Notes under the pieces: generated by a model
Seen by the model: only the letters and a program-made list of their open reading frames with translations
Databases searched by the model: none
Told to the model about the DNA's origin: nothing
Origin: Bacillales bacterium UBA5026
GTDB taxonomy: Bacteria; Bacillota_I; Bacilli_A; RF39; UBA660
DNA: 64,000 bases
Assembly: GCA_002416285.1 (NCBI GenBank)
Contig: DICM01000034.1
Coordinates: 274 to 64,273, forward strand
Direction of reading: 5' to 3'
Part shown: in pieces, positions 9,933 to 50,929 of the stretch
Numbering within the stretch: position 1 is the stretch's first letter
Layout of the letters: each line of letters begins with the position of its first letter
Program-made: the position numbers and the translations under genes

Positions 9933-9955
9933 AAAAAAACTATCTTTCGATAGTT
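9933..9955 (-). terminator. Terminator after the pilus ATPase gene
   Basis: 7-bp stem AACTATC/GATAGTT with a T7 run on the minus strand, abutting the stop codon. Confidence 0.6.
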
Positions 9956-11288: not shown

Positions 11289-11376
11289 CCCCTTTTATTC
11301 AATTTGGACTAGCTTTTATCCTAGAACTATTATATAATAGAATTATATTAATTACAATAAGAAGGGGCGAACTTCT

Positions 11377-16270: not shown

Positions 16271-16371
16271 ATTTTTCACCTCCAAGTCATTGATCTATCT
16301 TATTTTAACAAAGATTGGAAAAAAAAGCAATAAAAACTGGCTTTTTGGTCAAAATAATTCTAGGTGATAAC

Positions 16372-17388
16372 ATGAAACATGAAATTGATTTAGGAAAATA
16401 TCAGGTACATACGGACTTAGCAATTGATACGATTCCAAGAGAGTCAGACTATTTAAAAATCTCTGAAAAAGATGGAGTAAAAGTTACAATTGCTGAGATT
16501 GATGATTCTACAGGAAAAACAATCGGTAAAAAAGCTGGTCTCTATACGACGATTGAATTTCAAGATGTAACAGATTTTGACAATCGAAAAAAAGTAGAAG
16601 ATGTAGTAACGAGCGAACTGTCTAAATTTTTAAAACAAAAAAAGATATCAAAAGATGATCATGGATTAATTATTGGTCTTGGAAATGAAAGATCAACACC
16701 CGATTCGTTAGGTCCTTTAACAATCGATAAAATTTTAGTTACAAATCATCTTGCTCTTCTTGGTGACATGGAAGAGGGTTTTCGACCTATTTCTGCTTTT
16801 GCACCAGGGGTAATGGGGGAGACTGGAATTGAAACCAGTGATTTAATCAAAAGTACAATTACTGCTATTAAACCGGACTTTGTAATTGTCATTGATGCTC
16901 TTGCAAGTTCCTCTATCGAACGATTAAATAAAACTATTCAAATGAGCGATGCTGGAATTCACCCAGGAAGTGGGGTAGGCAACAATCGTAAGGAAATTAG
17001 TAGTGAACAGTTAGGAATTCCTGTTATTGCAATTGGTATTCCTACTGTCGTTGATGCAGTAACATTAGTAAGTGACACTTTAGTCTATATGGAAAAACAT
17101 TATGCATTTCATAGACAATTCTCTAAAAAAGCAGTTAGTAGATTAGTAGTCGCTAGTACAGTTGATTTTCGAAAGAATACGATTGAAGCAAATGACTCAG
17201 ATAATCAGCAATTACTTGGACTCGTTGGTTCGTTAAATGCAGAAGAAAAAAAAGAACTTCTTTTTGAAGTCTTAAATCCTATTGGTTATAATTTTATGGT
17301 AACACCAAAAGAAATTGATTTTTTAATGGAAGAACTCAGTCAAGTTCTTGGCAATGCATTAAATAGAGCACTGCATCAAAAATATTAA
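16372..17388 (+). CDS. gpr: Spore germination protease Gpr
   Basis: YQVHTDLAIDT and GLGNERSTPDSLGP motifs. Divergent from rpsT as in Bacillus. The start was set at the ATG after GGTGA. Confidence 0.85.
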   Translation: MKHEIDLGKYQVHTDLAIDTIPRESDYLKISEKDGVKVTIAEIDDSTGKTIGKKAGLYTTIEFQDVTDFDNRKKVEDVVTSELSKFLKQKKISKDDHGLIIGLGNERSTPDSLGPLTIDKILVTNHLALLGDMEEGFRPISAFAPGVMGETGIETSDLIKSTITAIKPDFVIVIDALASSSIERLNKTIQMSDAGIHPGSGVGNNRKEISSEQLGIPVIAIGIPTVVDAVTLVSDTLVYMEKHYAFHRQFSKKAVSRLVVASTVDFRKNTIEANDSDNQQLLGLVGSLNAEEKKELLFEVLNPIGYNFMVTPKEIDFLMEELSQVLGNALNRALHQKY

Positions 17389-17486
17389 ATCAAAAAGAAA
17401 CTTGAAATAATCATCGCAACCATACCAATTAATAAAATAAGGGCAAAAATGCGTTGGGTATTGACTTTTTTCTTTTTCTTAGCCAT
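17385..17486 (-). CDS. Small membrane protein (33 aa), unannotated in the ORF track
   Basis: GAGGTGA RBS followed by MAKKKKKVNTQRIFALILLIGMVAMIISSFFLI. Its stop overlaps the gpr stop. Confidence 0.35.
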   Translation of the reverse strand: MAKKKKKVNTQRIFALILLIGMVAMIISSFFLI

Positions 17487-17575
17487 ATTTTCACCTCGTA
17501 TTCCTATTATAATATATTTTTAAAAAAATTGGAATAACTAGCTTGTCTATTCATATGCTTTATTAGAGGTGGCAC

Positions 17576-18205
17576 ATGAAAAAAGTAATGGACAAACTAA
17601 AAACTAAAGTAAAAATTAACAAAAAAATGTTTTTCTTTCTCGCTGGACTAGCTATTATTGGTTTCCTTTTTGGAACATTCTTTATCACTATTTTATCTGG
17701 TAATGATCAAACCCTCGTAAAAAATTATATTTCTGATTTTATGACAATGATCGATCAGGATAAAATCAATTATCAAAATACTTTTATTAATACTCTAGTA
17801 TCACATTTCAGTTTTATTGGTACTATTTGGGTTTTAGGTATTTCTATTATTGGAATTCCTATCACACTATTTATGTATTTTTCAAAGGCATTTATGTTAG
17901 GTTTTTCCATAGGTTCTTTCATCTTACAATATAAATTAAAGGGAACATTGCTGGCATTTTTTTATATTTTTCCTCATCATATTATTAATTTAGCAATTCA
18001 TACCTTATTAATGGTATATTCAATAAAATTTTCAATAAAACTGATTGATAGTATCTTTCGAAAAAAAACAGTTAATTTTAAAGCAATTATAAATGTATAT
18101 CTGGGAGTTTTAATCTTTTCAATAATTGTTGTTTTCATTAGTTCTATTCTTGAAGTATTTGTAGTTCCCTTTATTTTTAAGAAACTTCTATTTTTAATTC
18201 ACTAA
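17576..18205 (+). CDS. spoIIM: Stage II sporulation protein M
   Basis: 209-aa polytopic membrane protein of SpoIIM/DUF95 size and topology in a sporulation gene context. Confidence 0.7.
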   Translation: MKKVMDKLKTKVKINKKMFFFLAGLAIIGFLFGTFFITILSGNDQTLVKNYISDFMTMIDQDKINYQNTFINTLVSHFSFIGTIWVLGISIIGIPITLFMYFSKAFMLGFSIGSFILQYKLKGTLLAFFYIFPHHIINLAIHTLLMVYSIKFSIKLIDSIFRKKTVNFKAIINVYLGVLIFSIIVVFISSILEVFVVPFIFKKLLFLIH

Positions 18206-19449: not shown

Positions 19450-19544
19450 TAGTGTATAAAATTGTAAAGTAGAAGAAAAAATATTGACGTAGTTAAAGTA
19501 TTGTGTCTTTTTTCTTTGACGATTCGGTAAGGGGAGAGAATAGC

Positions 19545-20315
19545 ATGGATAAATTAAATGATATTTTACATGAATTAGGTATTTCAAAGGTCAAATTAGC
19601 AAAGTTTTTAGGTGTATCTAGACAAATGATTTATAATTATTTAGAGTTAGATGATATTAACAAATGGCCTAAGGATAAAAAGGTATTATTACTAAATTTA
19701 CTCGGAATTAAATCTTCAGATGAATTAGATAGTATTAGAATTGATACAGATTATATTTTAAACGTTGAAAGTCGCTTAAATAGTTTGGTTGATTTAAATG
19801 CGAAAAACGAATATGGCGATAGTCTTTACAATGGTCTTGGAAAAAAACAACGTGAACTATTTTCAAATATTATTGCCCTTGTAAAAGATGGATTGGAAGA
19901 TGATTCAGAGGAAAGCTATGAAACCTATAAATATCTTTATCATTTTTTACAGGCACTGGAAAACTCTGATGAACTTAAATATATTTTAGGTTATGTAGCA
20001 AAAGCAAATGGATTTGTAAAACCACTTGAATTTGTATTTGATGAGGAAAATCAATTTATGTTTGAAAGTTTTATGTTCTCTGCTATGACCCTATATCAAA
20101 ATGGGAATGGGGTATCAAAGTCTAAGATTGCGGAATCACATCGTCGTTTTGTAAATCAAATTGAGCATAAAATGGAAGAGAAAATGAGTCGTACATTAGA
20201 ATTAAATGCGGTTAAAGTTCAAGCATTACGAGAACTTGGTTATACTGAAATCAATGAGAAGAATGCTGCTGAAGTATTTGAAAAGATAGCTGAAATTCAA
20301 TCTAGGGGAGTTTAA
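19545..20315 (+). CDS. HTH-domain protein of unknown function
   Basis: N-terminal HTH (ISKVKLAKFLGVSRQMIYNYLE). GGGGAG RBS precedes the ATG at 19545. Confidence 0.6.
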   Translation: MDKLNDILHELGISKVKLAKFLGVSRQMIYNYLELDDINKWPKDKKVLLLNLLGIKSSDELDSIRIDTDYILNVESRLNSLVDLNAKNEYGDSLYNGLGKKQRELFSNIIALVKDGLEDDSEESYETYKYLYHFLQALENSDELKYILGYVAKANGFVKPLEFVFDEENQFMFESFMFSAMTLYQNGNGVSKSKIAESHRRFVNQIEHKMEEKMSRTLELNAVKVQALRELGYTEINEKNAAEVFEKIAEIQSRGV

Positions 20316-20332
20316 TAAAACTTCTTTTTTAT

Positions 20333-20358
20333 TAAAAAAAAATAGGATTTTTCCTATT
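20333..20358 (-). terminator. Terminator after the DUF2726 pseudogene
   Basis: Stem AATAGGA/TCCTATT, loop TTTT, and a long T-run on the minus strand. Confidence 0.6.
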
Positions 20359-20957
20359 CTAAAAACTTTTTACCACAGTTGTTATATTATCATTGATATT
20401 AAACTTTTCTTTCTTTTTAATTCCATCATTTGTTAGAATTCGTCTAATCCGCTCTTGAACATAATTTTTTTCATTCGGCATATTAGTATAATATTTAATT
20501 AGCTTGATATTAGCATTATCGCATATTTGATCCACTTTGTAATCCCTTTTATGTCTTTTAAAAGTATTATGTGTGTACGATCATTGATTTCTATTAATAA
20601 AAGCAAGTCTTTGTAATCAGATGTAAATATTGCAAAGTCGATATTTCGATATAATTCATTCTGATAATGAGACCCAGGTTTATCAATAATAGTTGCCAAA
20701 TTGACTTGTGGCTGTATTACAATATCAAATTCATCTTCCAGTTTTTTGAAAATAGAGTAGAAGTAATATTCAGTTTTTGTCATAAATGGTTTTTTATAAT
20801 AATCCTTTTTTCTTGGTAGAGTAGGTGTTTTATCAATGGAATCATTTGCATAGCTAGATTTTTCTTTCCGTTTTCTTTTGTTATTTTCTGTAATATGTCT
20901 AGCAGATATAAATATCAATAAATATGAACTTACAATTAGTATAGTTATCCATAGCAT
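20359..20957 (-). pseudogene. DUF2726-family (restriction-endonuclease-like fold) membrane protein, frameshifted at an (AC)3 run near 20571-20577
   Basis: The track ORF ends ...LLLLIEINDRTH and then reads out-of-family sequence. The -1 frame continues HNTFKRHKRDYKVDQICDNANIKLIKYY... to a TAG at 20359-20361, completing the D-x-x-H...R-x-x-RD...hydrophobic C-terminal pattern I associate with DUF2726. Confidence 0.65.
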
Positions 20958-21065
20958 CTTATTTTATCATCCCTTCAAAACAACAAACAACATACTACTA
21001 TAACTTATAACAATATTAATTGTAGCATAGAGTTCCTTGATTTAACAGAAGAGAATAAAAAAAGA

Positions 21066-21236
21066 CTAGAACCTTTTACAATTACCGTTACCACAATTAT
21101 TTCTACAATTACCACAACCACCACAGAGGCAATTAAAAATAAAATTAATAAATCCAAATATTAGAACAAATGGAAGAAATAAGAAACAAAATGGTAATAC
21201 AAAGATAAAGCCTAAAAATAATAATAATATACACAT
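21066..21236 (-). CDS. Small Cys-rich hydrophobic peptide (56 aa), not in the ORF track
   Basis: GAGGTA RBS followed by MCILLLFLGFIFVLPFCFLFLPFVLIFGFINFIFNCLCGGCGNCRNNCGNGNCKRF. Confidence 0.4.
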   Translation of the reverse strand: MCILLLFLGFIFVLPFCFLFLPFVLIFGFINFIFNCLCGGCGNCRNNCGNGNCKRF

Positions 21237-21335
21237 AAAAATACCTCTTTTACTATGTTATTTATTATATTAAATGTGGTAGATTTCATTTTGATAATAA
21301 CAGAGAACTATATTAGAAATCAATTTATTTTTATT

Positions 21336-21363
21336 AGTTAACATAATATAGACTAGCGAAACA
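21336..21363 (-). other. attL: hybrid dif-like site (intact XerD arm and central region, degenerate XerC arm)
   Basis: The minus strand reads TGTTTCGCTAG-TCTATA-TTATGTTAACT. The last 17 nt are identical to the dif at 29121-29148, and the XerC arm matches only 6 of 11. Confidence 0.7.
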
Positions 21364-21401
21364 AAAATGTTCTGATAAAATTTTTGAAAGGAGAATAGGG
21401 T

Positions 21402-21533
21402 ATGCTTATTGAAAAAATTACAATATCAAAATTAATTGAAATATTGCAAGAAATGAACGAACAACGAATGCATAGAAATACCGTGCTAGATGTTATAATT
21501 AAAATCAATAAAAAACAGTCAGCTTATGACTGA
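21402..21533 (+). CDS. Small prophage protein (43 aa)
   Basis: AAAGGAG RBS followed by MLIEKITISKLIEILQEMNEQRMHRNTVLDVIIKINKKQSAYD. Below the ORF-track cut-off. Confidence 0.4.
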   Translation: MLIEKITISKLIEILQEMNEQRMHRNTVLDVIIKINKKQSAYD

Positions 21534-21538
21534 CTGTT
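21514..21538. terminator. Shared hairpin between convergent small ORFs (T-run only on the minus strand)
   Basis: 9-bp stem AACAGTCAG/CTGACTGTT with a 7-nt loop. Confidence 0.55.
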
Positions 21539-21562
21539 GCAAACATGCTGCACTTAATATAT

Positions 21563-21655
21563 TTAAATAGAATTATATAATATAATTCCTATTATAATTA
21601 TCAATAGTGCTAGAAAGAAGAATTCTCGAAATTCTTTTTTTATTTTTTCAAACAT
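21563..21655 (-). CDS. 30-aa hydrophobic peptide (type I toxin-like or holin-like)
   Basis: GGAGGTG RBS followed by MFEKIKKEFREFFFLALLIIIIGIILYNSI, then the hairpin terminator. Confidence 0.4.
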   Translation of the reverse strand: MFEKIKKEFREFFFLALLIIIIGIILYNSI

Positions 21656-21720
21656 GTTGCACCTCCAATCTAGAAAAGTCTAAGACTTTTCCCCTAATCT
21701 TAAAATTCTAGATAGGAGTA

Positions 21721-21761
21721 TAGCTAGAGTGTGAGGCATTTTCCCACGAGCACTCTAGCTA
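21721..21761. other. Stable 11-bp hairpin upstream of the 30-aa peptide gene
   Basis: TAGCTAGAGTG - 19 nt - CACTCTAGCTA, unusually GC-balanced for this region. Confidence 0.5.
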
Positions 21762-21767
21762 ATAAAA

Positions 21768-21800
21768 TTTATATAAAAACCTGTACTAGCATTCTTATAT
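21768..21800. repeat. Copy A of a roughly 32-nt direct repeat (internally palindromic)
   Basis: TTTATATAAAAACCTGTACTAGCATTCTTATA. About 28 of 32 positions are identical to copy B. Confidence 0.6.
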
Positions 21801-21802
21801 CA

Positions 21803-21961
21803 TTATTTTTCTAATATTGCGAAAAAGGCATATGGCTGAAATGCATTTTTTGAAATGCTAAAATTTCCTGTTATGATTTTATATCCGTCATTAACTAATT
21901 CATTTAATTTTTTTTCGAATTGTTTTCCTTCGGTTAATAATAAAACTTTTACATCTTTCAT
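21803..21961 (-). CDS. Small prophage protein (52 aa)
   Basis: GAAAGGAG RBS followed by MKDVKVLLLTEGKQFEKKLNELVNDGYKIITGNFSISKNAFQPYAFFAILEK. Vaguely DUF4177-like; flanked by the 32-nt repeats. Confidence 0.45.
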   Translation of the reverse strand: MKDVKVLLLTEGKQFEKKLNELVNDGYKIITGNFSISKNAFQPYAFFAILEK

Positions 21962-21980
21962 TTTTCTACTCCTTTCATTA

Positions 21981-22012
21981 TTTATATAAAAATCTATACT
22001 AGCCTTTTTATA
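21981..22012. repeat. Copy B of the roughly 32-nt direct repeat
   Basis: TTTATATAAAAATCTATACTAGCCTTTTTATA, immediately after the XRE gene stop. Confidence 0.6.
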
Positions 22013-22014
22013 AC

Positions 22015-22245
22015 TTAAATATCTTTTCTTAATAAATCTTTTACTTGAAACTTTTCATTATTTCCAATGAAATAAATTTTATAACCACATTGATTAGCTA
22101 TGTTTTCTAGAGTTTCAAAATTAATGTCTGTTTTTTCTCTCTCATAATCACTTAAAGTAGTTCTTCCGATATTGACTAATTTACTTAGTTTTTCTTGGCT
22201 TAAATGACTGTTTGCTCGCATTTTTTTTATTGCCTTTCCTATCAT
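22015..22245 (-). CDS. XRE/Cro-CI-family HTH repressor of the prophage
   Basis: LSQEKLSKLVNIGRTTLSDYEREK is a canonical HTH_XRE motif. Divergent from the phage forward operon. Confidence 0.8.
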   Translation of the reverse strand: MIGKAIKKMRANSHLSQEKLSKLVNIGRTTLSDYEREKTDINFETLENIANQCGYKIYFIGNNEKFQVKDLLRKDI

Positions 22246-22274
22246 AAGTCCTCCTTTTCTTTATTGTCGCAAAA

Positions 22275-22337
22275 TTCCACAAAAAATACTTGACTTGTGG
22301 AGAAACTCGGAGTAAAATAATACATATAGATGTGGAG
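22275..22337 (+). promoter_or_regulatory. Forward phage promoter (TTGACT-17-TAAAAT) overlapped by three TGTGGAG-type half-sites
   Basis: -35 at 22290-22295 and -10 at 22313-22318. TTCCACA (22275-22281) is inverted relative to TGTGGAG (22296-22302), and a third TGTGGAG lies at 22331-22337. Confidence 0.6.
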
Positions 22338-22363
22338 TTATTCGACATCAGTAGGAGGAAAAA

Positions 22364-22645
22364 ATGAGAAAAATAAATAGTACAATAATTAATGCAGAAT
22401 TAAAACAAATACCAAACGAGAAAACAGGTGTTGTTAATGAATATACAACGGTAAAATATACCATGGAGCGAGAAAATAGCGATATTGCTGTTGGAGTTGC
22501 GATTATGGAATGCTGGATACCTAAGAATTGTCTTGATGCGATTAAAGGCTACATCATGAAACCAGTTCAAATGGAACTTAGAGAAATCTTTAATGATAAA
22601 GGTTGTAAATTTCGAATTTCAAAAATAAATAACAATGCAATTTAA
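22364..22645 (+). CDS. Prophage protein (93 aa); candidate ssDNA-binding protein by position and size only
   Basis: AGGAGG RBS. It is the first gene of the forward operon, where gene V sits in the circular map (Rep - attP - regulators - this gene - coat genes). Confidence 0.45.
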   Translation: MRKINSTIINAELKQIPNEKTGVVNEYTTVKYTMERENSDIAVGVAIMECWIPKNCLDAIKGYIMKPVQMELREIFNDKGCKFRISKINNNAI

Positions 22646-22880
22646 TGTTTTAGTTACTTACCGAAAACCGAATGGGAAAACACTTACTAGAGAATTGAGT
22701 AGCTGTGATTATAGAGTAGGGCATATCAACTCTTACGGTTGGGAAGTAATTGAGATACAAGTATTTTATCAAGGAAAATATATGCAACTAGAAACGTTTG
22801 AAAGATTACGTTACCAATATGACTATGAACGTCATAAAAAGAAGAGTATATTTTCTAAGTTTTCCAAAAAAAACAAATGA
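22635..22880 (+). CDS. Prophage hypothetical protein (81 aa)
   Basis: Its start overlaps the end of the upstream gene (22635 vs 22645), consistent with translational coupling. No recognisable motif. Confidence 0.45.
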   Translation: MQFNVLVTYRKPNGKTLTRELSSCDYRVGHINSYGWEVIEIQVFYQGKYMQLETFERLRYQYDYERHKKKSIFSKFSKKNK

Positions 22881-23423
22881 TGATAAATGTAATATGGGTG
22901 GTTAATTTTAAATGCTAGTAAAGGTTTGAAATTGAATAAAAATTATAAGTTAGTATTATAGCACTCCAATCTAGAAAATCACACAAGACTTAAATTTAAA
23001 GTACCTACTTACTATACTTTCTTAAAATCTATACAAGATTAGCAAAATACTTCGCTTATAAATAGGGTAAATAATAGGGAATTACATTATTATCAAAACT
23101 AAAAAAGGTTATCACAAAAAATCAGCAAGATATTATGCCGAGAAAATTATTTAAAAAAAGTCGTTTTTGATAAGCTGAAAGGCTAAAAAGATGCGAAACA
23201 TCAGAGGCATACCTCTTGATGATAGCAATCCACTTGTTACATCTTTAAAATCAAAAAAACGGTTACTTTTTTAAAATAAGGAATTGGAATAAATCAACAA
23301 GAAAAAACAAGATAACCTTATCGTTCAGCGAACGGGGTAAAATTTTGCTCAAGGGCTTAGCGAAGAAAAAACTTTCTACAATTTCTATAAGAAAAAGATA
23401 TTTTGAAAAGAGGGGAAAAACTT

Positions 23424-23567
23424 ATGACAGAAGTGCAGGCAACAACATTACTAGAAGAAATTACAACAATGAGAATCTTGCTTCAAGGAGTATGTGGAAT
23501 CTTAATGCTTGTGGTATTAGTAGCTGTAATATATGCCTTCTATAAGTTTTTCAAAATATTCTTTTAA
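23424..23567 (+). CDS. 47-aa coat-like membrane protein (minor or alternative coat)
   Basis: AGAGGGG RBS followed by MTEVQATTLLEEITTMRILLQGVCGILMLVVLVAVIYAFYKFFKIFF. Acidic N-terminus, TM core, basic tail. Missing from the ORF track. Confidence 0.5.
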   Translation: MTEVQATTLLEEITTMRILLQGVCGILMLVVLVAVIYAFYKFFKIFF

Positions 23568-23593
23568 AAAAGAGTGGAAAGGGGTTTTGAAAA

Positions 23594-23761
23594 ATGGAAG
23601 GAACAACTTCAATTTTTGACGGAGCTATCACATCAGCTACATTACAACCTGTTTTAGACGGTATTAAAGAATTACTACCAGTAGTAATTCCAGTAGCAGT
23701 AGGATTCTTAGCATTCCGTAAAGGTTGGTCATTTGTAATGTCAACCGTAAAAGGAGCGTAA
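23594..23761 (+). CDS. 55-aa putative major coat protein (Pf3-like architecture, no signal peptide)
   Basis: MEGTTSIFDGAITSATLQPVLDGIKELLPVVIPVAVGFLAFRKGWSFVMSTVKGA. Acidic N-terminal part, hydrophobic core of about 20 residues, and basic residues (R, K, K) in the C-terminal tail. Missing from the ORF track. Confidence 0.6.
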   Translation: MEGTTSIFDGAITSATLQPVLDGIKELLPVVIPVAVGFLAFRKGWSFVMSTVKGA

Positions 23762-23797
23762 GCTCTTCTTATAATAAAAGAAAGGACGTGAAGAAAA

Positions 23798-25423
23798 ATG
23801 AAAAAATTACTATTTGTAACAATCATTGCCTTCATGTCTTTTTTCTATATAGATAATGTAAACGCAGAAGAGATACAACATTTTACTTTGAATTATGATA
23901 ATCAAGAATTTAATGTTGATATACCTGTTAAATATTTACAAAATAATTATATTGGTACAATGTCTAAAAATAGTTCTACTGGTTCTTATCTTTTTCGATT
24001 ATTTTATGATTTTAATTATGTGGGTTTACGTTATTCAACAAGTGGAACGCAAAAAGATATTTCTTTTTATTTTAAAGATACTTCTGATGCAATAGATTCC
24101 GGTTCTGTAAATGCTTTAATTTATAATTTTACTACTAAAACATTTACAGAAGATTCTGGTGTTTATATTCCACGTTTTGCTTTAAATGATGAAATAACTG
24201 ATAATTATGTTCCCGTTGATTTTTTTATAAAATATGATAATAAAATTTATTTGGATGGGAGAAATATCAATTCTAATTTAACTTATAAAATAAATAATGT
24301 TGATTATAAAAAAGGTGATGAAGTTTTCTTTGGTGGTTCTTCAATAAGATTCGGTATTGTTGACTCAGAAACGGAAGTTATAAATGGAATAACTTATTAT
24401 AAGTCTAAAACAGTTCGTATGACATTGCAAGGAAAAAACAATACGAAATATTATTATGAATATACAACAGATAATGGAGCGAGTTGGATTACATTGTTAC
24501 TTACTCAAAAAGATTATTTTGATATTAAGTTTACTACAAATACAGTTTTGTTAGTAAGAATACGAGAACGTAATACGTTTGATGTGTTAAATGATTATAC
24601 ATTTACACTTTCCGGAATTGCGACTGACGAACTTACTAGTGAATATGAAGAAATTCCTTTAAGAGGGCATGAGGGTATTATTCTCTATGCAAAAAATACT
24701 TATCAAGATTTAATTTCTACAGTATATATGGAAACAGGAAATATCCATGTTACAAAATATTCAAATGGTAAAATTGTACAGCAAATGAGGGATATTGCAG
24801 TAGATTTTCAAGTAACATTAGGTCCACGCGATACAGATTATTATTTAATAAAAAATAATGATACAAGTATTAATACCGTATTACGCGTTTTGAAAGATAA
24901 ATTTGCTTATTATTATTTGAATGACGCGCTTAGTACGATTACAATTGAAAATCCAAATACGGGAGAGGCAGAAGTATTAGGGAGCATTTATGAGAGCGAA
25001 CAATACTATAAAGACCATGTTGAACAGGATTCGGACGTAGTTGAAAACAACTGGTTATTGAAAATCTTAAAAATGGCATTTGTTCCGGACTTAAGCGCGT
25101 TTAATAATTTAGTATCTATGTTTAACCGAAAGTTTGGAATCTTTTCACAGTTGGCAAGTACATTACCGGATTTGTTCCAGTTTGGGGGAGAAGACCCACC
25201 CGAATTTAATATGACAATTTACGGAACTACTGTTAATATTGTTGACTTTTCAGCATTTGAAATTGTACGTACATTCTTACACGGACTCATTCTCGCATTC
25301 GCATGGTATGGATTTATAAGACGTTGTTATGAACGAGCACCAGCATTTATAGGTGGATTCTTTAGCTTTGAACGTGCTGTTGGTGATATTTCTGTACCAA
25401 GTTCAAAAGGGGGTAAAAAATGA
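23798..25423 (+). CDS. Secreted 541-aa protein with a C-terminal membrane anchor (pIII-position adsorption/minor coat candidate)
   Basis: Signal peptide MKKLLFVTIIAFMSFFYIDNVNA/EE and a C-terminal hydrophobic helix LHGLILAFAWYGFIRR. Lies directly downstream of the coat-like genes. Confidence 0.55.
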   Translation: MKKLLFVTIIAFMSFFYIDNVNAEEIQHFTLNYDNQEFNVDIPVKYLQNNYIGTMSKNSSTGSYLFRLFYDFNYVGLRYSTSGTQKDISFYFKDTSDAIDSGSVNALIYNFTTKTFTEDSGVYIPRFALNDEITDNYVPVDFFIKYDNKIYLDGRNINSNLTYKINNVDYKKGDEVFFGGSSIRFGIVDSETEVINGITYYKSKTVRMTLQGKNNTKYYYEYTTDNGASWITLLLTQKDYFDIKFTTNTVLLVRIRERNTFDVLNDYTFTLSGIATDELTSEYEEIPLRGHEGIILYAKNTYQDLISTVYMETGNIHVTKYSNGKIVQQMRDIAVDFQVTLGPRDTDYYLIKNNDTSINTVLRVLKDKFAYYYLNDALSTITIENPNTGEAEVLGSIYESEQYYKDHVEQDSDVVENNWLLKILKMAFVPDLSAFNNLVSMFNRKFGIFSQLASTLPDLFQFGGEDPPEFNMTIYGTTVNIVDFSAFEIVRTFLHGLILAFAWYGFIRRCYERAPAFIGGFFSFERAVGDISVPSSKGGKK

Positions 25424-25674
25424 TAGTAACGATTATTATTAACCTTTTATTAGCACTTCCAACATTTTTACTTTCATTACTTCCGGATAATGTAGTAACT
25501 CTTCCAGATAATGTATTTAATATTATGCATGAAGTATTTTATGGGATTGGTTATGTGTTACCTATGGCTGGACTAGCTTCAATTATGGTAATTTCTACAG
25601 CGCTTATTGGAATGCAAATAACTTGGTCTATTATTTTGAGGATTAAGTCTTTTATACCAACAATGGGGGCATAG
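25420..25674 (+). CDS. 84-aa polytopic membrane protein (pVI position)
   Basis: Overlaps the upstream stop (ATGA). Has 2-3 TM segments. Confidence 0.5.
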   Translation: MIVTIIINLLLALPTFLLSLLPDNVVTLPDNVFNIMHEVFYGIGYVLPMAGLASIMVISTALIGMQITWSIILRIKSFIPTMGA

Positions 25675-25765
25675 TGCGTTGTTATTATGCGAACTTTAAG
25701 AGTTTAGTATTTGTTTATGTATTCGTGTACGTGAATAATTCCTAGGGGGTATTTTTTAAACCGCC

Positions 25766-25785
25766 ACACACGGAGTGTGTTTTAT
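25766..25785 (+). terminator. Weak internal terminator/attenuator between the structural and assembly genes
   Basis: ACACAC-GGA-GTGTGT followed by TTTTAT. Confidence 0.4.
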
Positions 25786-25811
25786 ATAGATTTTAGTTAG
25801 GAGGTAGAACT

Positions 25812-26657
25812 TTGTTAGTAGGATTTATAGGAGTATTAAAAATGCTCTTTGAATTAATCTTATGGTGTATTAAATGGGTAGGTATTGCACTTTTACCGAT
25901 TGTTATTATGATGATATATTTCTATATTCATTATTATATAAAAGGTTATCGTATGAAACCACGTACTACACCAGTTTATAAAAAACCGTCTTTCTTTAAA
26001 CGGCTTCTTATACAGTTTCCCAAGCGATTTATATTAGACCTCTTTGCACGTGACCCCGACGCATTTACGGATTACGGGGTGCATTTGGTCTGTGGAGAGC
26101 AGGGAAGCGGGAAAACTATGACGGTTGTCTATTTACTTCAAGAATATCAAAAACGGTTTCCTAAAATGAATGTGAAAACGAATTTTAATTATTTGAAACA
26201 AGACGATGAAATAACGCATTGGCGAGATATTGTATTTTCAAATAATGGAATCTATGGAGAAATTGACGTTTTAGACGAAATACAAACGTGGTTTAGTTCT
26301 ATGCAGTCACTCAATTTTCCAGTTGAAATGTTGCAAGAAATATCACAACAACGTAAACAAAGAAAAGCAATTTATGGAACAGCTCAAGTGTTTACAAAAA
26401 TAGGTAAGAGTATTCGGGAACAGACAACCTTTTTGTATCTTCCGATTACAATCGCAGGTTGTCTCACAATATGTCGAAAGTATGCCTTAAGACTTGATTC
26501 CGAGGGTCAGATTAAGGAAAAACATTTAAGACGAACATTTTTCTTTGTTCATACGGAAGAGCTTAGAAATAGCTATGATACGTATAAAAGAATCGAACGT
26601 TTGGCAAAAGACGGTTTTAAAGAGACAATTACAGATAAGATTATAGAAAGTAGGTAG
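25812..26657 (+). CDS. Membrane-anchored P-loop NTPase (pI/Zot-position morphogenesis ATPase candidate)
   Basis: N-terminal TM, Walker A GEQGSGKT, Walker B IDVLDEIQ. TTG start after AGGAGG; an alternative ATG lies at 25842. Confidence 0.6.
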   Translation: MLVGFIGVLKMLFELILWCIKWVGIALLPIVIMMIYFYIHYYIKGYRMKPRTTPVYKKPSFFKRLLIQFPKRFILDLFARDPDAFTDYGVHLVCGEQGSGKTMTVVYLLQEYQKRFPKMNVKTNFNYLKQDDEITHWRDIVFSNNGIYGEIDVLDEIQTWFSSMQSLNFPVEMLQEISQQRKQRKAIYGTAQVFTKIGKSIREQTTFLYLPITIAGCLTICRKYALRLDSEGQIKEKHLRRTFFFVHTEELRNSYDTYKRIERLAKDGFKETITDKIIESR

Positions 26658-26662
26658 ATTTA

Positions 26663-26863
26663 ATGACAAAAAAAGAATTTCTTAGTGATTTTATACATTA
26701 TTTAATTTTTACAGTTTTGTTTTTAATTTTGTTTAAAATCTTTAAGATTAAATTTTATGCCGTTGGTTATATTGTTAGTTTTGTTTTAACTTGTTCTAGT
26801 TTAGTTTATCATATAAAAATGTTATATCGTGAATATAAACTAAAAAAAGTAGAAAGTAGGTAG
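26663..26863 (+). CDS. 66-aa membrane protein
   Basis: Two TM segments. Preceded by the junction motif GAAAGTAGGTAG. Confidence 0.45.
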   Translation: MTKKEFLSDFIHYLIFTVLFLILFKIFKIKFYAVGYIVSFVLTCSSLVYHIKMLYREYKLKKVESR

Positions 26864-26868
26864 GTTTT

Positions 26869-27132
26869 ATGGTTGATGGTTTTGAATTTATAGTTTCGTG
26901 CGTTTTTTGTTTTACTTTGGGTACTGTATTTGGTGGAACTTTTGATTATAAAAAAACGTATTCAAAATATGATAAACTTAGAAATTTTTATAATTTTCTA
27001 AAAGTAAATGGTTATATTGTCGCAAAAAGCGAAAAAGAAATTGTACTTGCTTTTTTGAAAAAAGAAGAATCACAGCATGAAACAATTTGTAATGAAGTTA
27101 AATATAAAATGTTTAAGGATGATGTTTTATGA
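26869..27132 (+). CDS. Prophage hypothetical protein (87 aa)
   Basis: N-terminal TM. Preceded by the junction motif GAAAGTAGGTAG. Confidence 0.45.
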   Translation: MVDGFEFIVSCVFCFTLGTVFGGTFDYKKTYSKYDKLRNFYNFLKVNGYIVAKSEKEIVLAFLKKEESQHETICNEVKYKMFKDDVL

Positions 27133-27347
27133 TAGAAGAACGTCTGAAAGAAAAAATTGACTTGGTTTTATTCGATTATTATTTTAATAATAAATTATCA
27201 TGGTTTGATAGTAAAATTATTGATTTTTTAGTAAGAAAAAAGAAGTATAAGGATTATGCCTTAATTCGTATTAAGTATTACATACGACAAGTCAAAAATG
27301 ATAATTTTTGGAGTCTTCTAGTCTCGCTAGACCATGTGCGTGCCTAA
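27129..27347 (+). CDS. Prophage hypothetical protein (72 aa)
   Basis: Its ATG lies within an ATGA overlap with the upstream stop. Its 3' end runs into the GC-rich island. Confidence 0.4.
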   Translation: MIEERLKEKIDLVLFDYYFNNKLSWFDSKIIDFLVRKKKYKDYALIRIKYYIRQVKNDNFWSLLVSLDHVRA

Positions 27348-27405
27348 TGTTTCCGGGGTCCCAGTGGGAGTTTGGAAACATGGGCCGGAAATGGGTCCCA
27401 AAATA
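27320..27405. other. GC-rich structured island (nested inverted repeats, GGGTCCCA x2)
   Basis: ATGTTTCC (27347-27354) pairs with GGAAACAT (27374-27381). TTTCCGG (27350-27356) pairs with CCGGAAA (27385-27391). GGGTCCCA occurs at 27356-27363 and 27393-27400. Confidence 0.55.
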
Positions 27406-27427
27406 GGTTGAAAGTAGGTGATTTTGA

Positions 27428-27625
27428 ATGAAAAAGAATTTAATGCTACAACTTCTTTTAGATTTTCTATTTTTGGCTTTAGCAATCGCAATAATTCTAT
27501 GGCTTAAAAACATGTTTGTAACTATTACACTTTTATTGTATTTTGCTTTCTTACTGTTTGTTGATTTCTGTAATTTTCGGAAAGCAAAGAAGCAAAAATC
27601 GACTGTAGTTGATATAGTTGAGTAA
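27428..27625 (+). CDS. 65-aa membrane protein
   Basis: Two TM segments. Preceded by TGAAAGTAGGTGA. Confidence 0.4.
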   Translation: MKKNLMLQLLLDFLFLALAIAIILWLKNMFVTITLLLYFAFLLFVDFCNFRKAKKQKSTVVDIVE

Positions 27626-27722
27626 TTATACCAGGTCATCAAAGACTAAATACTATACAAAACAAGATAATTTACAGTATAAAAGCGATAAATTAACGTA
27701 TTTAAAAGGACTACAAGGAACA

Positions 27723-27745
27723 CCGGCGCGTCGTGAGACGCCCGG
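27723..27745. other. GC-rich hairpin with a GTGA tetraloop just upstream of the Rep ATG
   Basis: CCGGCGCGTC-GTGA-GACGCCCGG (9 bp plus one bulge) in an otherwise AT-rich context. Confidence 0.55.
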
Positions 27746-27800
27746 ATGTTCTTTACTTGATAGTAGTCTCATATCTCCACACCCCTTAAAAGTTTATTCC

Positions 27801-28748
27801 ATGAAAATAATTGAAACTGGCGATTTTATAGAAGTTTATGATTATAACGATATTAAAACTCGAAAAGATGTAAACTTTGAAAAAATTGAACGAAAAAAAA
27901 TAAAAGGAATTAAACGTAGCTTTGAAACAAAAGAAATAGGAAAGTGGGGGAGTCATTCTACATTATTAGAAAATGGTTCTATAACATTTATTAATTATCA
28001 AAAGATTCAAACGAAGTATGCTTTAGAACATATGAATAATGAAACGTTTGTAATTCGCGATTCTGTTCCAAAAGAAAAGAAAATTGAGCTGAAGAATATT
28101 CTTCGTAGTAAGTTTGCTATGGAACGTATTGTAAAAGCAAATATGAATGAATTTAAAACATTTATCACATTAACATTTGCAGAGAATATCATTAATATTG
28201 ATGAGGCAAATAAAAAGTTCGACACATGGCGAACTCATATAAAAGCATTAAAAAGAGACTTTAAATATGTCTGTGTTCCGGAATTTCAAAAGTTAAGAGA
28301 ACGAAAAACCGGATATGCAGTAGTACATTATCATTTACTAACTAATTTAGACATAATTAAAGACTCGGATATTATTATATCACAAAAAGAATTTACAGAA
28401 AAACAGTTGCTAGAAATGAGCGGACGGCAACGTAGTAAATGTTATGATGTACGTTATTGGAATTATGGCTTTGTTAGAGTCGATACATTAAAAGATATGA
28501 ATGTAGTAGGGTATATATCAAAGTACATGACGAAAGACATAGATAATAGGCTTTGGGGAAAACGACGTTATCTATATAGTCAAAATTTAAAAAAACCTAG
28601 TGTATCATATTTAAACTTTAGTAATATTGAAGATTTTAAACATTATGTAAATAATTTGAATGGCTTTGAATTGAATTTTGAAAAGGTGTATGCTGATAAA
28701 TTCGGACAGGCAATAGAATATAAAGAATACAAGAAAGTAGGCGCTTAA
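27801..28748 (+). CDS. HUH rolling-circle replication initiator (Rep)
   Basis: Motif I FITLTF, motif II (HUH) VVHYHLLTN, motif III GYISKYMTKD. The track ORF extends to a TTG at 27618, so the N-terminus is uncertain. Confidence 0.7.
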   Translation: MKIIETGDFIEVYDYNDIKTRKDVNFEKIERKKIKGIKRSFETKEIGKWGSHSTLLENGSITFINYQKIQTKYALEHMNNETFVIRDSVPKEKKIELKNILRSKFAMERIVKANMNEFKTFITLTFAENIINIDEANKKFDTWRTHIKALKRDFKYVCVPEFQKLRERKTGYAVVHYHLLTNLDIIKDSDIIISQKEFTEKQLLEMSGRQRSKCYDVRYWNYGFVRVDTLKDMNVVGYISKYMTKDIDNRLWGKRRYLYSQNLKKPSVSYLNFSNIEDFKHYVNNLNGFELNFEKVYADKFGQAIEYKEYKKVGA

Positions 28749-43473: not shown

Positions 43474-45486
43474 CTATGTAAACGCTAATGCATTAGCGGC
43501 CCCGAAGGCTATTTTATACTTTTTCTCTTGATAAAAAATAAATCTTATCATTCCTTGCCTACTTGTCATTAACACATTAATATTTCGCTTATAAAGTTTT
43601 TCTAGGACCTCTTTAGATGGATGACCATAAGTGTTTTTTAAGCCAACCGATATAATTCCAAAATTCGGTTTTACAAAGTCTAGAAACAAATCTGAAGTAC
43701 TCGTTTTCGATCCATGGTGACCTATCTTTAGTATATCCACAGGTAGCGTGGAATATTCCTCTAAAATTCTTTTTTCAACTTCCGTAGATGCATCTCCCAT
43801 TAGTAGGATATGTCTCTCTTGCAATTTTGTGTATAATACTAAACTATTATTGTTCTCATTCGTATATTGTTTTTGATTGATAGAATAAAAATGAATGGAT
43901 CCCACTTTTAAAGTTAAGTCCGTTAAATGGTTCCAAGAAATATTCTCTTTGGTAGCCTTGTGTTGAATCAAAAGTTCTAATTCGTTACTATCACCTAAAT
44001 TAAAATAAATTTTTTTAATAGGAAATCTACCAATTAAATTAAGTGCTTCTCCGGCATGATCTTGATCTCCATGGGTTAAAATTAAAGCAGATAAAGAATG
44101 GATTCCACGTGCTTTTAAATATGGGATCAAAATAGAATCTGTTATGGAAATTGTGTTTCTTTTTTTCCAGTCTTCCTGTTTAAATTCTATTTTCCCACCC
44201 GTATCGATTAATACAACAGTGTCACGTTGGATCAATAATGTTGCATCTCCTTGCCCTACATCAAAAGAAATGAGCTCTGTTGTTGGAAATAGGTAAAAAT
44301 GATAATGATGGATAATCAGAAAAAGAACTAACAACAATATCAAAATTCTCTTTTTGTAATATAAAATACCGATAATTAAAGCAATAAGAAATAGTAGTGA
44401 AATCATATCTAGATATCCAAATGAGATTTTACTAGGAATACTATTTAATAAATTGCTAAACCATTCTAACAAAACAATTGCTAAATGAAAAAATGGTTCT
44501 GCAAAAGGAATGATTAATATAATAATTGAAAGAGGAAAAACTAAAAAGCTTACATACGGAATATAGATAATATTAAATATTGGTGTTAAAACATTGATTG
44601 AATAAAAATAGTTAATGGTTATAGGCATGCTTACTAAAAACGAAATCAAGGAACAATGATATAGTTTTCGAATGTATGATACTTTATTATCTTGCCGAAA
44701 ATAAATAAGTGAGAAAGATACTAAAAAACTATAAAGAAAACCCAAATGGTACCAGTAATAAGGATTCCATATTAAAAATATAAAAAACGTTACAATAAGA
44801 AGTTCTAAGGAATTGTACTTCCAATGCATAATTTTTTTTATCTCGATGAGAAAAAACATGACAATTGCCCTTAAAACAGAAGGAGTAAAATCTACTAAAA
44901 AAGCAAAAAAGAATAAAATGCTGACACAGAAGACTACTGTTGTCTTTTTCTTTTTCGGAAGAAAAAATAAAATAATATCTACTATAATGGCAATGTGCGA
45001 TCCTGAAACTGCCATTAAGTGGCTCACTCCTAAATCACGATAGGTACTCATCATTTCTTCTCCCTGGATATCGGTGATTCCAAAAAGAAATAATTTTATA
45101 TTTGATCCTTCATGAAAAGATTCGATATAGTTTAATGTTTTATTCTTTATCTGATAAAATACATTAATCTTTTTGCTCTTAATTGATAAAGTATCGATTT
45201 CCATAATCCAGTTGATCTTTCTTGATTTCAAATATGTCATATAATTGAACTGATATGGATTACTTGGTCCGGTTGGATTTTTTAATGTCCCGGATAATTC
45301 TATTTTCATTCCCAGTTTTAATTGCTGTGATAGTTCTTTCATTTCTTTTTCAGTTTTAAAATAATAAAATCCTATTACTTTTTCTTTTCCTTTTATAATA
45401 ATCTGTAACTGGTTTCCTTCAATTTTATAATTGATTATATTCCCATTTATTGAGGTTGTAGAATCATTATACTTGGTAAAGTTCAC
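43474..45486 (-). CDS. comEC: DNA internalisation competence protein ComEC/Rec2
   Basis: OB-like N-terminus, polytopic competence domain, and C-terminal metallo-beta-lactamase (THGDQDHAGE, GHHGS). GTG start. Confidence 0.85.
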   Translation of the reverse strand: MNFTKYNDSTTSINGNIINYKIEGNQLQIIIKGKEKVIGFYYFKTEKEMKELSQQLKLGMKIELSGTLKNPTGPSNPYQFNYMTYLKSRKINWIMEIDTLSIKSKKINVFYQIKNKTLNYIESFHEGSNIKLFLFGITDIQGEEMMSTYRDLGVSHLMAVSGSHIAIIVDIILFFLPKKKKTTVVFCVSILFFFAFLVDFTPSVLRAIVMFFLIEIKKIMHWKYNSLELLIVTFFIFLIWNPYYWYHLGFLYSFLVSFSLIYFRQDNKVSYIRKLYHCSLISFLVSMPITINYFYSINVLTPIFNIIYIPYVSFLVFPLSIIILIIPFAEPFFHLAIVLLEWFSNLLNSIPSKISFGYLDMISLLFLIALIIGILYYKKRILILLLVLFLIIHHYHFYLFPTTELISFDVGQGDATLLIQRDTVVLIDTGGKIEFKQEDWKKRNTISITDSILIPYLKARGIHSLSALILTHGDQDHAGEALNLIGRFPIKKIYFNLGDSNELELLIQHKATKENISWNHLTDLTLKVGSIHFYSINQKQYTNENNNSLVLYTKLQERHILLMGDASTEVEKRILEEYSTLPVDILKIGHHGSKTSTSDLFLDFVKPNFGIISVGLKNTYGHPSKEVLEKLYKRNINVLMTSRQGMIRFIFYQEKKYKIAFGAANALAFT

Positions 45487-45538: not shown

Positions 45539-46204
45539 TTAAATGATAATCTGATCTTTGATTTTAGCAAAAACAGATTCTCCAATTCCTTTTACATTCA
45601 TGATATCTTCAATTGATTCAAAAGGTTGGCTTTCACGGTAACTAATAATATCTTTTGCTTTTGCTTCACCAATCCCGCTCAATGTCATAAGCTCCTCTTT
45701 TGAAGCTTTATTGATTGAAATCTTCGTTGATTTTTTATCTGGCTCACTTGGTTCAGCTGGATAACTACAAGCATCATTAATAGTATCTGGGCAATTGCAT
45801 GGAATTGGTACCTCAACATATTCTGTAACTACTTTACTCTTTTCATATGTCGCAATTTCTTCTTTAGTATAGACATAGATTGTCATTTGATCTTCAAGTC
45901 GCTTACTCAAATTTAAATAATAGATATCAGATTCTTCTAATATCCCACCAGCATAATTAATCGCATCATTGACACGATCTCCTGACGTTACTTCATAAAC
46001 CCCCGGATTTACAACAGCACCTTTCACATCAACTTTAAAGGTTTGGACTTCAGAAGGAGCTGGTTCTTCTTTTAAATTTAATTCAACCGGAGCAGCCTCA
46101 GTAGATTCCTTTCCTTTTACAAACCAAAAACTACCAACTAAACAAATTAGAAGAAAACCTATTATATACAAGCGATATTGATATATATATTTCTTCATAT
46201 TCAC
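45539..46204 (-). CDS. comEA: Competence DNA receptor ComEA (SLBB + helix-hairpin-helix)
   Basis: N-terminal TM, SLBB (VNPGVYEV), tandem HhH (LSGIGEAKAKDII, VKGIGESVFAKI). Confidence 0.85.
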   Translation of the reverse strand: MNMKKYIYQYRLYIIGFLLICLVGSFWFVKGKESTEAAPVELNLKEEPAPSEVQTFKVDVKGAVVNPGVYEVTSGDRVNDAINYAGGILEESDIYYLNLSKRLEDQMTIYVYTKEEIATYEKSKVVTEYVEVPIPCNCPDTINDACSYPAEPSEPDKKSTKISINKASKEELMTLSGIGEAKAKDIISYRESQPFESIEDIMNVKGIGESVFAKIKDQIII

Positions 46205-48553: not shown

Positions 48554-49063
48554 TTATTCTGCTTTCACAATATATTTTAAAACTTCATGATCTTGTATTT
48601 TCTTACGGATTGGCATTTCATAAAAATCGTTCATATTAAATGATTTTTTTAGTTGCTCTTCACTGGTACTTGTTGTATATAAACTTACCATAACTAGTTC
48701 TACATCAATTGCAATACCATGTTTTTCTAAACTAATTTTAACCGGAATTTTATTCCCGTTTCGTTCTCCAAAGGCAGCAACTACATTATAGATTGTTTCT
48801 CTTTCCCAAAGTCCATTTTTACTAAGTGCAAGTTCTAATTTTCCCTCTTCATAAGTTTGATTTGAAAGCTCATCTAAAGATATAAAAGAAGATGTATCAA
48901 AGACAAACTCAATTGTTCCATTTACAATTTGTTCTCCAATTTGTCTTGGATAAAATCCCATAACTCCTTGAATACTCACAATTGCTTGTCCCTGATAATT
49001 ACGACTCCTAAAGTTTAGTTCTGAATTAGATACCTGAAATTCATGATTATTGATTTTTAACAT
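48554..49063 (-). CDS. Hypothetical cytoplasmic protein (169 aa) downstream of the large pilin
   Basis: Same strand, 38 nt after the pilin stop. No motif recognised. Confidence 0.45.
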   Translation of the reverse strand: MLKINNHEFQVSNSELNFRSRNYQGQAIVSIQGVMGFYPRQIGEQIVNGTIEFVFDTSSFISLDELSNQTYEEGKLELALSKNGLWERETIYNVVAAFGERNGNKIPVKISLEKHGIAIDVELVMVSLYTTSTSEEQLKKSFNMNDFYEMPIRKKIQDHEVLKYIVKAE

Positions 49064-49101
49064 TCTATCACCCTATCCATTATATCACAAAATTATAGTT
49101 T

Positions 49102-50832: not shown

Positions 50833-50868
50833 CTAAATACCCCCCCCCGGTTGCTTTTTGTATATCAT
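50833..50868 (-). CDS. 11-codon leader uORF containing the G9 tract
   Basis: GGAGG, 7 nt, then ATG ATA TAC AAA AAG CAA CCG GGG GGG GGT ATT TAG. Lies between a good promoter and the pilin gene. Confidence 0.35.
   Translation of the reverse strand: MIYKKQPGGGI
50840..50848 (-). repeat. Homopolymeric G9 (C9 on the plus strand) tract
   Basis: The only long G/C homopolymer I noticed in this AT-rich window. It lies 98 nt upstream of the pilin ATG. Confidence 0.9.
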
Positions 50869-50900
50869 TTTTAGTCCTCCTAGTTTTCTTATCCTTCTTT

Positions 50901-50929
50901 ATTCTAGCATATATTAATTTCTCATTCAA
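50901..50929 (-). promoter_or_regulatory. Sigma-A-type promoter for the leader/pilin transcript (TTGAAT-17-TAGAAT, TGc extended -10)
   Basis: -35 at 50924-50929 and -10 at 50901-50906 on the minus strand. Confidence 0.55.

Follow-up and report, generated by a model that had tools for sequence, protein, structure and literature searches.

A G9 tract in a pilin leader ORF as the possible variable element of a frameshift-gated transcription attenuator

Described switches and attenuators closest to the pilin leader

Phase variation by repeat slippage is known in coding regions and promoters, and leader-peptide attenuation is known for metabolites and antibiotics. Homopolymeric-tract contingency loci of surface structures include the poly-G tract of Neisseria pilC and the poly-G genes of Campylobacter jejuni, in which the tract lies within the structural gene, giving a truncated protein, or in a promoter. 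Here, we describe a G9 tract upstream of a pilin gene on the minus strand of a 64-kb stretch of DNA with 30.7% G+C, hereafter the window. The locus shares with pilC and the C. jejuni genes a G run of at least 8, slippage (presumed in the window), a reading frame that decides the outcome, a surface or pilus target, and a host-associated bacterium as carrier. It differs in that the 11-codon leader ORF containing the tract is separate from the structural gene, which is always intact. Tracts are also known in promoter spacers, as in Bordetella fim (poly-C), Neisseria porA and opc (poly-G), and Treponema pallidum tpr (poly-G). This arrangement corresponds to poly-G promoters that we found upstream of other pilin genes (type A, in loci L038 and L077), whose tract surroundings resemble those in the window. 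Unlike these promoters, the window tract lacks credible hexamers around it and has a terminator-like hairpin downstream.

In ribosome-mediated attenuation of E. coli pyrBI, the leader ORF runs through the terminator, much as the long reading frame of the window leader does. Attenuation that depends on an upstream ORF (uORF) has been described for Bacillus subtilis vmlR and streptococcal msrD (PMC9226507). These three systems and the window have in common a promoter-proximal ORF with a Shine-Dalgarno (SD) sequence upstream of an intrinsic terminator, and a need of the leader ribosome for read-through, which in the window is proposed. Their input is nucleotide supply or antibiotic stalling, whereas the proposed input in the window is a heritable frameshift. 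No alternative antiterminator helix is evident in the window, where the ribosome itself would be the antiterminator. In Clostridioides difficile, recombinase-driven inversion in the leader of the surface-protein gene cwpV decides whether an intrinsic terminator forms. This is likewise a heritable DNA switch in the leader that gates the terminator of a gut Firmicute surface gene, but it works by DNA inversion and involves neither repeat slippage nor translation. Repeats in transcribed leaders include the poly-G of Moraxella catarrhalis uspA1. Haemophilus influenzae hmw1A has heptamer repeats in its 5' leader, with a role for RNase III (PMC12721329), and a G-repeat at Helicobacter pylori tlpB is targeted by a small RNA, as cited in PMC12721329. 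As in the window, these repeats are transcribed but precede the start codon of an adhesin or surface gene, and they act after initiation. Their routes are RNA processing, small-RNA pairing or unknown, and involve no uORF frame or terminator.

Our literature searches found no published phase-variable uORF, leader peptide or attenuator, and no precedent for a terminator gated by a repeat tract within a leader ORF. We propose, with a probability of roughly 0.6, that a frameshift-gated transcription attenuator operates here and that the G9 tract is its variable element; the mechanism is inferred, with no expression data. We consider it evenly balanced whether this represents an undescribed class of contingency locus, in which tract slippage toggles a leader ORF into or short of a terminator and so turns a heritable change into ribosome-dependent antitermination, recurring in uncultured gut Bacilli and controlling lectin-fold type IV pilins beside the promoter-spacer poly-G design. 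Comparative support is good for the leader family and only indirect for the window copy.

Organization of the window leader

The whole leader, the anatomy of which is established (Table 1), fits into the 232 nt that separate the stop of an ABC-transporter gene (50974) from the pilin ATG (50742). A sequence-only reading of this DNA had described the promoter, GGAGG, ATG, leader peptide, G9 tract and 98-nt distance to the pilin gene, and each of these was found on the minus strand where that reading had placed it. The TTGAAT-17-TAGAAT promoter was also picked by a promoter scan (9/12 matches, TG present). With GGAGG, 7 nt and ATG downstream of this promoter, the window sequence provides the leader ORF expected of a ribosome-mediated attenuator.

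Table 1. Coordinates of the leader elements, the pilin gene and related features (window positions unless a locus is named)
Feature	Position	Strand	Details
Promoter	50929-50901	-	-35 TTGAAT 50929-50924, 17-nt spacer, TG 50909-50908, -10 TAGAAT 50906-50901 (TGcTAGAAT)
Match to covariance model R1 (full length)	50894-50762	-	32.6 bits, E = 3.4e-5, model positions 1-159
Candidate stem P1	50884-50822	-	RBS region 50884-50870 pairs with 50837-50822 just 3' of the tract; tract in loop
SD of leader ORF, GGAGG	50880-50876	-	7 nt ahead of ATG 50868-50866
Leader ORF, G9 state	50868-50833	-	MIYKKQPGGGI, 11 codons + stop TAG 50835-50833
Leader ORF if G8 or G11	50868-50793	-	24-25 codons, stop TGA 50795-50793 within terminator 5' arm
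G9 tract, presumed slippage site	50848-50840	-	From sequence; C9 on the + strand; last G 98 nt before pilin ATG
Terminator-like hairpin + U-run	50804-50772	-	5' arm 50804-50791, loop 50790-50787, 3' arm 50786-50773, U-run 50776-50772
Pilin SD, GAAGGAG	50756-50750	-	Between hairpin and pilin ATG
Pilin gene (regulated gene)	50742-49102	-	546-aa prepilin-type protein; Pfam N_methyl, homologues, AlphaFold model
169-aa ORF	49063-48554	-	No family match; just downstream of pilin gene
Type A loci	L038 2431-2461; L077 1194-1224 and 2482-2512; L050 1-14		G11 (L038); G8 and G9 (L077); contig begins in run (L050)

The G9 tract is the only G or C run of at least 7 in the 64-kb window, which bears out the claim that it is the sole long G/C homopolymer; the next longest are three C6 runs, and a first-order model predicts about 0.015 runs of at least 9. 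Nine bases also reach the length, about 7-8 or more, at which a G/C run of a contingency locus is expected to slip. An identical leader, also with G9, is present in an independent assembly (Logan) of run SRR1749867, which rules out an artifact of one assembler, although the underlying reads may be the same. We found no record for the window pilin itself, the flanking ABC transporter and 169-aa protein were matched only in that Logan assembly, and the species is not among GTDB representatives. The Logan assembly breaks within the pilin gene: contig L008 ends 371 codons in, and L009 starts with the last 157 codons, which suggests repeats or paralogue variation in the coding region of that sample.

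Frame translation confirmed that loss of one base from the tract lengthens the leader ORF to 24 codons, ending at a TGA 51 nt upstream of the pilin ATG (about 50 nt had been claimed), and that gain of one base gives 14 codons. Only the G8/G11 frame would bring a ribosome to overlap the terminator-like hairpin in the window. An alternative genetic code in which TGA encodes tryptophan, which would shift the stop of the long frame, was considered and rejected. Translation with table 11 gives long ORFs, and TGA is the stop codon of 5 out of 40 large ORFs; the code of this organism is the standard one. Were TGA read as tryptophan, the next stop of the long frame (TAA) would also lie within the hairpin.

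The terminator-like hairpin is the key element and is absent from the sequence-only reading. Its sequence, AAAGGAACUUGACU-AAGU-GGUUAAGUUCUUUU followed by further U (50804-50772), folds at -15.3 kcal/mol (z = -5.76), and none of 200 shuffled sequences was equally stable. A 14-bp stem followed by a U-run is the form of an intrinsic terminator; termination itself is inferred. From the end of the hairpin and U-run, 29 nt (50771-50743) remain to the pilin ATG, or 37 nt counted from the start of the T-run, and neither the sequence nor the promoter scan revealed a promoter-like site between the hairpin and the ATG. Because the hairpin ends so near the ATG, a separate pilin promoter does not fit.

In the candidate stem P1, GGAGG pairs with CCUCU. 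This pairing was seen in both the minimum free energy and the centroid structures of the window leader, yet its z of -0.70 is no better than that of shuffled sequences. We do not rely on P1 for the window for this reason, and P1 was dropped as a defining stem common to all leaders for want of statistical support in the window. CC..CC just 5' of the G-run can pair with the run.

The leader matches no known cis-regulatory RNA family. Some pilin genes are controlled by riboswitches of the c-di-GMP classes. No riboswitch, including these classes, no T-box and no Rfam leader was recognized in the window: a search of the whole window at Rfam gathering thresholds gave no match, and a search in E-value mode returned only noise for the 501-nt leader region (at most 17.7 bits, E of at least 1.6) and nothing for four related loci.

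Related leaders and their tract lengths

Scans with the pilin recovered about 120 related loci, and we took a homopolymer census over about 0.46 Mb of them. With one exception, the G/C runs of at least 7 precede pilin-type genes, and it is the coding strand that carries the G. These upstream runs fall into two designs, type A and type B. Type B is that of the window: a consensus promoter, a small ORF with SD and ATG that contains the run close to its 3' end, a long hairpin followed by a U-run, and the pilin gene. Its members are L085/L125, L090-L094, L095, L097 and L099-L101 (all G9), L089 and L102-L105 (G8), and L096 (G10); their leaders precede giant pilin genes on contigs of gut Bacilli, and at least four genomic contexts are represented among them. 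Counted over all leaders with this layout, the contexts other than that of the window number at least six. The promoter design, TTGnnn-17-TGnTAnnAT, also occurs at the pilin genes of L001, L002, L107 and L108 as well as in the L085 family. Assemblies evidently break around type B leaders: the contigs of L093 (1-48) and L098 (1-70) begin inside them, between terminator and ATG or in the terminator loop. The orthologous giant pilins of L085 (2454-4388) and L089 (1891-3921) are about 92% identical at both ends, with about 150-200 unrelated residues in the middle that look like an exchanged cassette, a second layer of variation at the same locus.

RNAalifold, applied to eight type B leaders, predicted a 14-bp P1, which pairs the region of the uORF start with sequence 3' of the tract, and a 20-bp terminator with two compensatory pairs. 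P1 is conserved in the L085 family and exceeds shuffled sequences in L085 and L096 (z = -2.7 and -4.1). A covariance model built only from type B leaders of other loci, R1, found the window leader as its best match in 128 kb searched, with the next best at 17.8 bits, and aligned the window hairpin to the model terminator. Core members score 112-182 bits, which makes the window copy a distant member of an established leader family; its score comes in part from the G-run and a generic terminator. Viral contigs, scanned with the P1 arm and with the context of the window tract, yielded chance matches only, and R1 recognized none of them. The closest homologues of the pilin (L001, L002, L011, L107 and L108, 75-84% identity) lie in other contexts behind plain promoters, and the leaders of all five lack tract, uORF and terminator. 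The element has thus not been inherited together with this pilin subfamily.

Type A consists of TTGACA, 8-10 nt, G8-G11 and TATACT (TGTATGCT in L050), about 45 nt before the pilin ATG. Its total spacer is 19 nt in all three complete cases, 2 nt above the 17 nt at plain pilin promoters of the lineage. By its layout, type A is a classical promoter-spacer arrangement, and its presence upstream of other pilin genes (L038, G11; L077, G8 and G9; L050) raises the possibility that the window tract also works in this way, with TATACA (50863-50858) as a weak -35, TATTTA (50839-50834) as a weak -10 and the tract between them setting the spacing of a second promoter. The surroundings of the window tract, ACAAAAAGCAACC-G9-TAT, do resemble the type A sequence ACAAAACGCTTCC-G9-TAT, and the spacer is 19 nt in both. 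We nevertheless consider this very unlikely. TATTTA matches TATAAT at only 3 of 6 positions, lacks the final T and was not listed by the promoter scan, leaving the tract without adequate hexamers. A transcript begun there would still meet the terminator, without the leader ATG needed to overcome it, and the perfect GGAGG-7-ATG upstream of the tract would be left unexplained. L085-family leaders, moreover, share the tract, ORF and terminator but have no -35 at the equivalent place.

The three reading frames behave alike in the window and in every type B leader. One class of tract lengths stops about 4-6 nt past the tract (peptides ending GI or VI), a second stops about 12-18 nt past it (ending YLAL or YLIIL), and the third stays open until a stop within the terminator hairpin. 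The site of this last stop varies: the window has TGA in the 5' arm, the L085 type has TAG within the inner stem, on its 3' arm, and the L096 and L099 types have TAA in the loop. In the source assemblies, gene callers annotated a 37-aa ORF only where the contig has a long-frame tract length. Across eight variants of the extremely A+T-rich spacer between tract and hairpin, the long frame contains no stop triplet, compared to 16 and 17 in the other two. At a single locus, the chance that one frame is open to the hairpin is about 0.25-0.37 per frame, the stop-triplet test is partly circular, and related leaders are not independent of each other. Since a single open frame is not improbable, the weight rests on recurrence across diverged spacers.

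The sequence-only reading had called for a comparison of tract lengths among related strains. At homologous loci, lengths differ between samples while the flanks are identical; for the window locus, the sole other assembly has the same G9. L096 (G10) and L097 (G9) precede an identical pilin in two samples of one study and show no mismatch in 260 flanking nt; L099 and L101 (G9) likewise have no flanking mismatch to L102 and L103 (G8). The L099-L105 locus, recovered from seven samples, has G9 in three and G8 in four, and L085 (G9) and L089 (G8) have leaders that are 96% identical. The L099-L105 and L096/L097 loci come from Hadza and ERZ272870xx/ERZ272874xx samples. These polymorphisms are established for the relatives, in which the tract appears, from the assembled sequences, to be hypermutable; variation of the window tract is inferred.

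An alternative interpretation is that there is no switch here. The leader, with a stable G9, would be a constitutive attenuator or else a gene for a small RNA or small peptide, and the length differences among relatives would be sequencing or assembly errors in homopolymers. Sequencing is prone to errors at homopolymers, the window tract is known only as G9, and some contigs break in or near these leaders (L050, L093 and L098). Against such errors, the contigs with differing consensus lengths have coverages of 7x to 233x according to their names, and the tract is the sole difference in 260 nt between contigs of high coverage. A G9 run is also about 100-fold unexpected in DNA of about 31% G+C, the near-confinement of such runs to pilin leaders argues for selection, and an intact 546-aa gene behind permanent termination should decay. 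We regard the absence of a switch as quite improbable, although a stable tract at this one locus is not ruled out, since the collections contain no second strain.

R1 also found two pilin leaders, L063 and L064, that the homopolymer census had missed. L063 has only G5, which is in the same frame class as G8, and in L064 the run is replaced by TTGGTATTG. Each leader retains the promoter, P1 and terminator, and in each the long frame is fixed, with ORFs of 38 and 50 aa that run into or through the terminator. Such fixation, which is established, is expected if the long frame is the expressing state; a gene that was always terminated would not be maintained.

These two leaders also bear on the possibility that the tract acts at the RNA level without translation, with the small ORF incidental. 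The length of the G-run would then affect how the RNA folds, or how a protein or a C/U-rich small RNA binds to it, and thereby change termination, stability or processing. The conserved P1 brackets the tract in the L085 family, the CC..CC before the run can pair with it, and G-repeats in 5' leaders can be length-dependent targets of small RNAs, as mentioned in PMC12721329. With the tract in a loop, however, one base more or less should hardly change folding, and the retention of P1 and terminator in L063 and L064 without a long G-run indicates that the run is not structurally required. The conserved SD-ATG, the stops in three frames and the fixation of the long frame in relatives without a long tract would remain unexplained, and no Rfam family matches. 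Action at the RNA level alone is unlikely on this evidence.

Operation of the proposed attenuator and the pilin it would control

In the frameshift-gated attenuator that we propose, transcription would begin at the TTGAAT-17-TAGAAT promoter, and the strong GGAGG-ATG would recruit a ribosome to the leader ORF. If the tract is G9 (or likewise G6 or G12), the stop would be 4 nt past it, and with G10 it would be 12 nt past it. In either case the ribosome would leave at least 20 nt before the hairpin (50804-50773), the terminator would form and the pilin gene would be OFF. With G8 or G11 the ORF would stay open for 14 further codons, to the TGA in the 5' arm of the hairpin, and the translating or terminating ribosome would cover the 5' arm together with the loop and most of the 3' arm, blocking the terminator, so that RNA polymerase would read into the pilin gene (ON). 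Replication slippage at the tract would make the change between states heritable and reversible, and the sequenced population, with G9, is predicted to be OFF. Which state is ON is inferred, as is the presence of a ribosome near enough to the polymerase. The suggestion that slipped-strand changes switch the pilin gene through leader translation, mRNA structure or termination is supported and narrowed by the comparative evidence, with the effect on pilin expression still inferred.

The main difficulty is presented by B. subtilis, in which RNA polymerase moves ahead of the lead ribosome (PMC9226507). A simple mechanism in which the ribosome blocks the hairpin would be defeated by this unless the polymerase pauses, and a pause has not been demonstrated. 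In B. subtilis vmlR, uORF-dependent control of a leader terminator is aided by RNA polymerase pausing, and NusG-dependent pausing in this species has the motif TTNTTT (PMC9226507). Directly after the tract, leaders of the L085 family have TTATTT (L085 2247-2252 and equivalents), which fits this motif; the window has GTATTT (50840-50835). A pause at TTATTT could synchronize polymerase and ribosome in the L085 family, or P1 could be a pause hairpin that the translating ribosome melts. Both are untested leads.

Runaway transcription in Bacilli (PMC9226507) counts against ribosomes reaching the terminator in time, and is one reason to consider that translation into the hairpin acts after transcription, on mRNA stability, processing or pilin translation rather than on termination. 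The frame evidence is the same for this interpretation as for the attenuator. The hairpin, however, has the full form of an intrinsic terminator (14-bp stem, U-run) and does not overlap the pilin SD, which is more than 15 nt downstream, and if termination occurs at the hairpin there is no downstream mRNA left to stabilize. We give an effect after transcription little credence without excluding it.

The gene that the attenuator would control encodes a protein whose N-terminus carries the type IV pilin methylation motif (Pfam N_methyl). In its AlphaFold model (pLDDT 86), a long N-terminal helix precedes a C-terminal domain (about residues 140-546, a high-confidence prediction). Among PDB structures, this domain significantly matches only TaqVP, the variable protein of a diversity-generating retroelement (DGR), which has a ligand-binding fold of the lectin/FGE type; the pilin domain is thus large and lectin-fold by predicted structure. 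The TaqVP match prompted consideration of a DGR, which was rejected because the window lacks a template-repeat copy of the pilin gene, even of a part of it. Relatives of the pilin in metagenomes number in the thousands, and most are annotated from genomes of uncultured "Bacilli bacterium". There is no terminator between the pilin gene and the 169-aa ORF, and the two are therefore probably co-transcribed. A TGaTATAAT extended -10 of its own lies ahead of the 169-aa ORF, right behind the pilin stop codon (region 48554-49101, minus strand), and a terminator-like hairpin (AGGAGAA...TTCTCCTTTTT) follows the ORF at about 48535-48500.

Other genes in the window relate to pili, competence or sporulation. 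A T2SSE-family ATPase (9954-11294, minus strand; Pfam E = 1.7e-125), a pilus or competence assembly motor, is encoded 40 kb from the pilin gene, and ComEA (45539-46204) and ComEC (43474-45486) lie just downstream of the pilin locus. Because the Gpr germination protease and SpoIIM are present (16309-18205, plus strand), the organism is probably an endospore former and not a wall-less, Mollicutes-like bacterium. On the plus strand at 19497-28748, ORFs without a Pfam match (19497-20315, 23792-25423 and 25797-26657) are followed by a rolling-circle replication protein, REP_ORF2-G2P (27618-28748). This region may be an integrated small ssDNA phage or plasmid-like element.

If the proposed mechanism is true, slippage and attenuation would be joined in a new route from hypermutable DNA to gene expression, one in which the structural gene stays intact in every state. 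It would have a signature that can be searched for in any genome, namely an SD-ATG, a G/C run, a stop, and a terminator entered by one alternative frame. It would also imply proximity of ribosome and polymerase in a lineage in which runaway transcription is thought to be the rule. For abundant uncultured gut Bacilli, it would mean that they vary lectin-fold pilins, which are likely adhesins, with a bearing on colonization, immune evasion and the variation of phage receptors.
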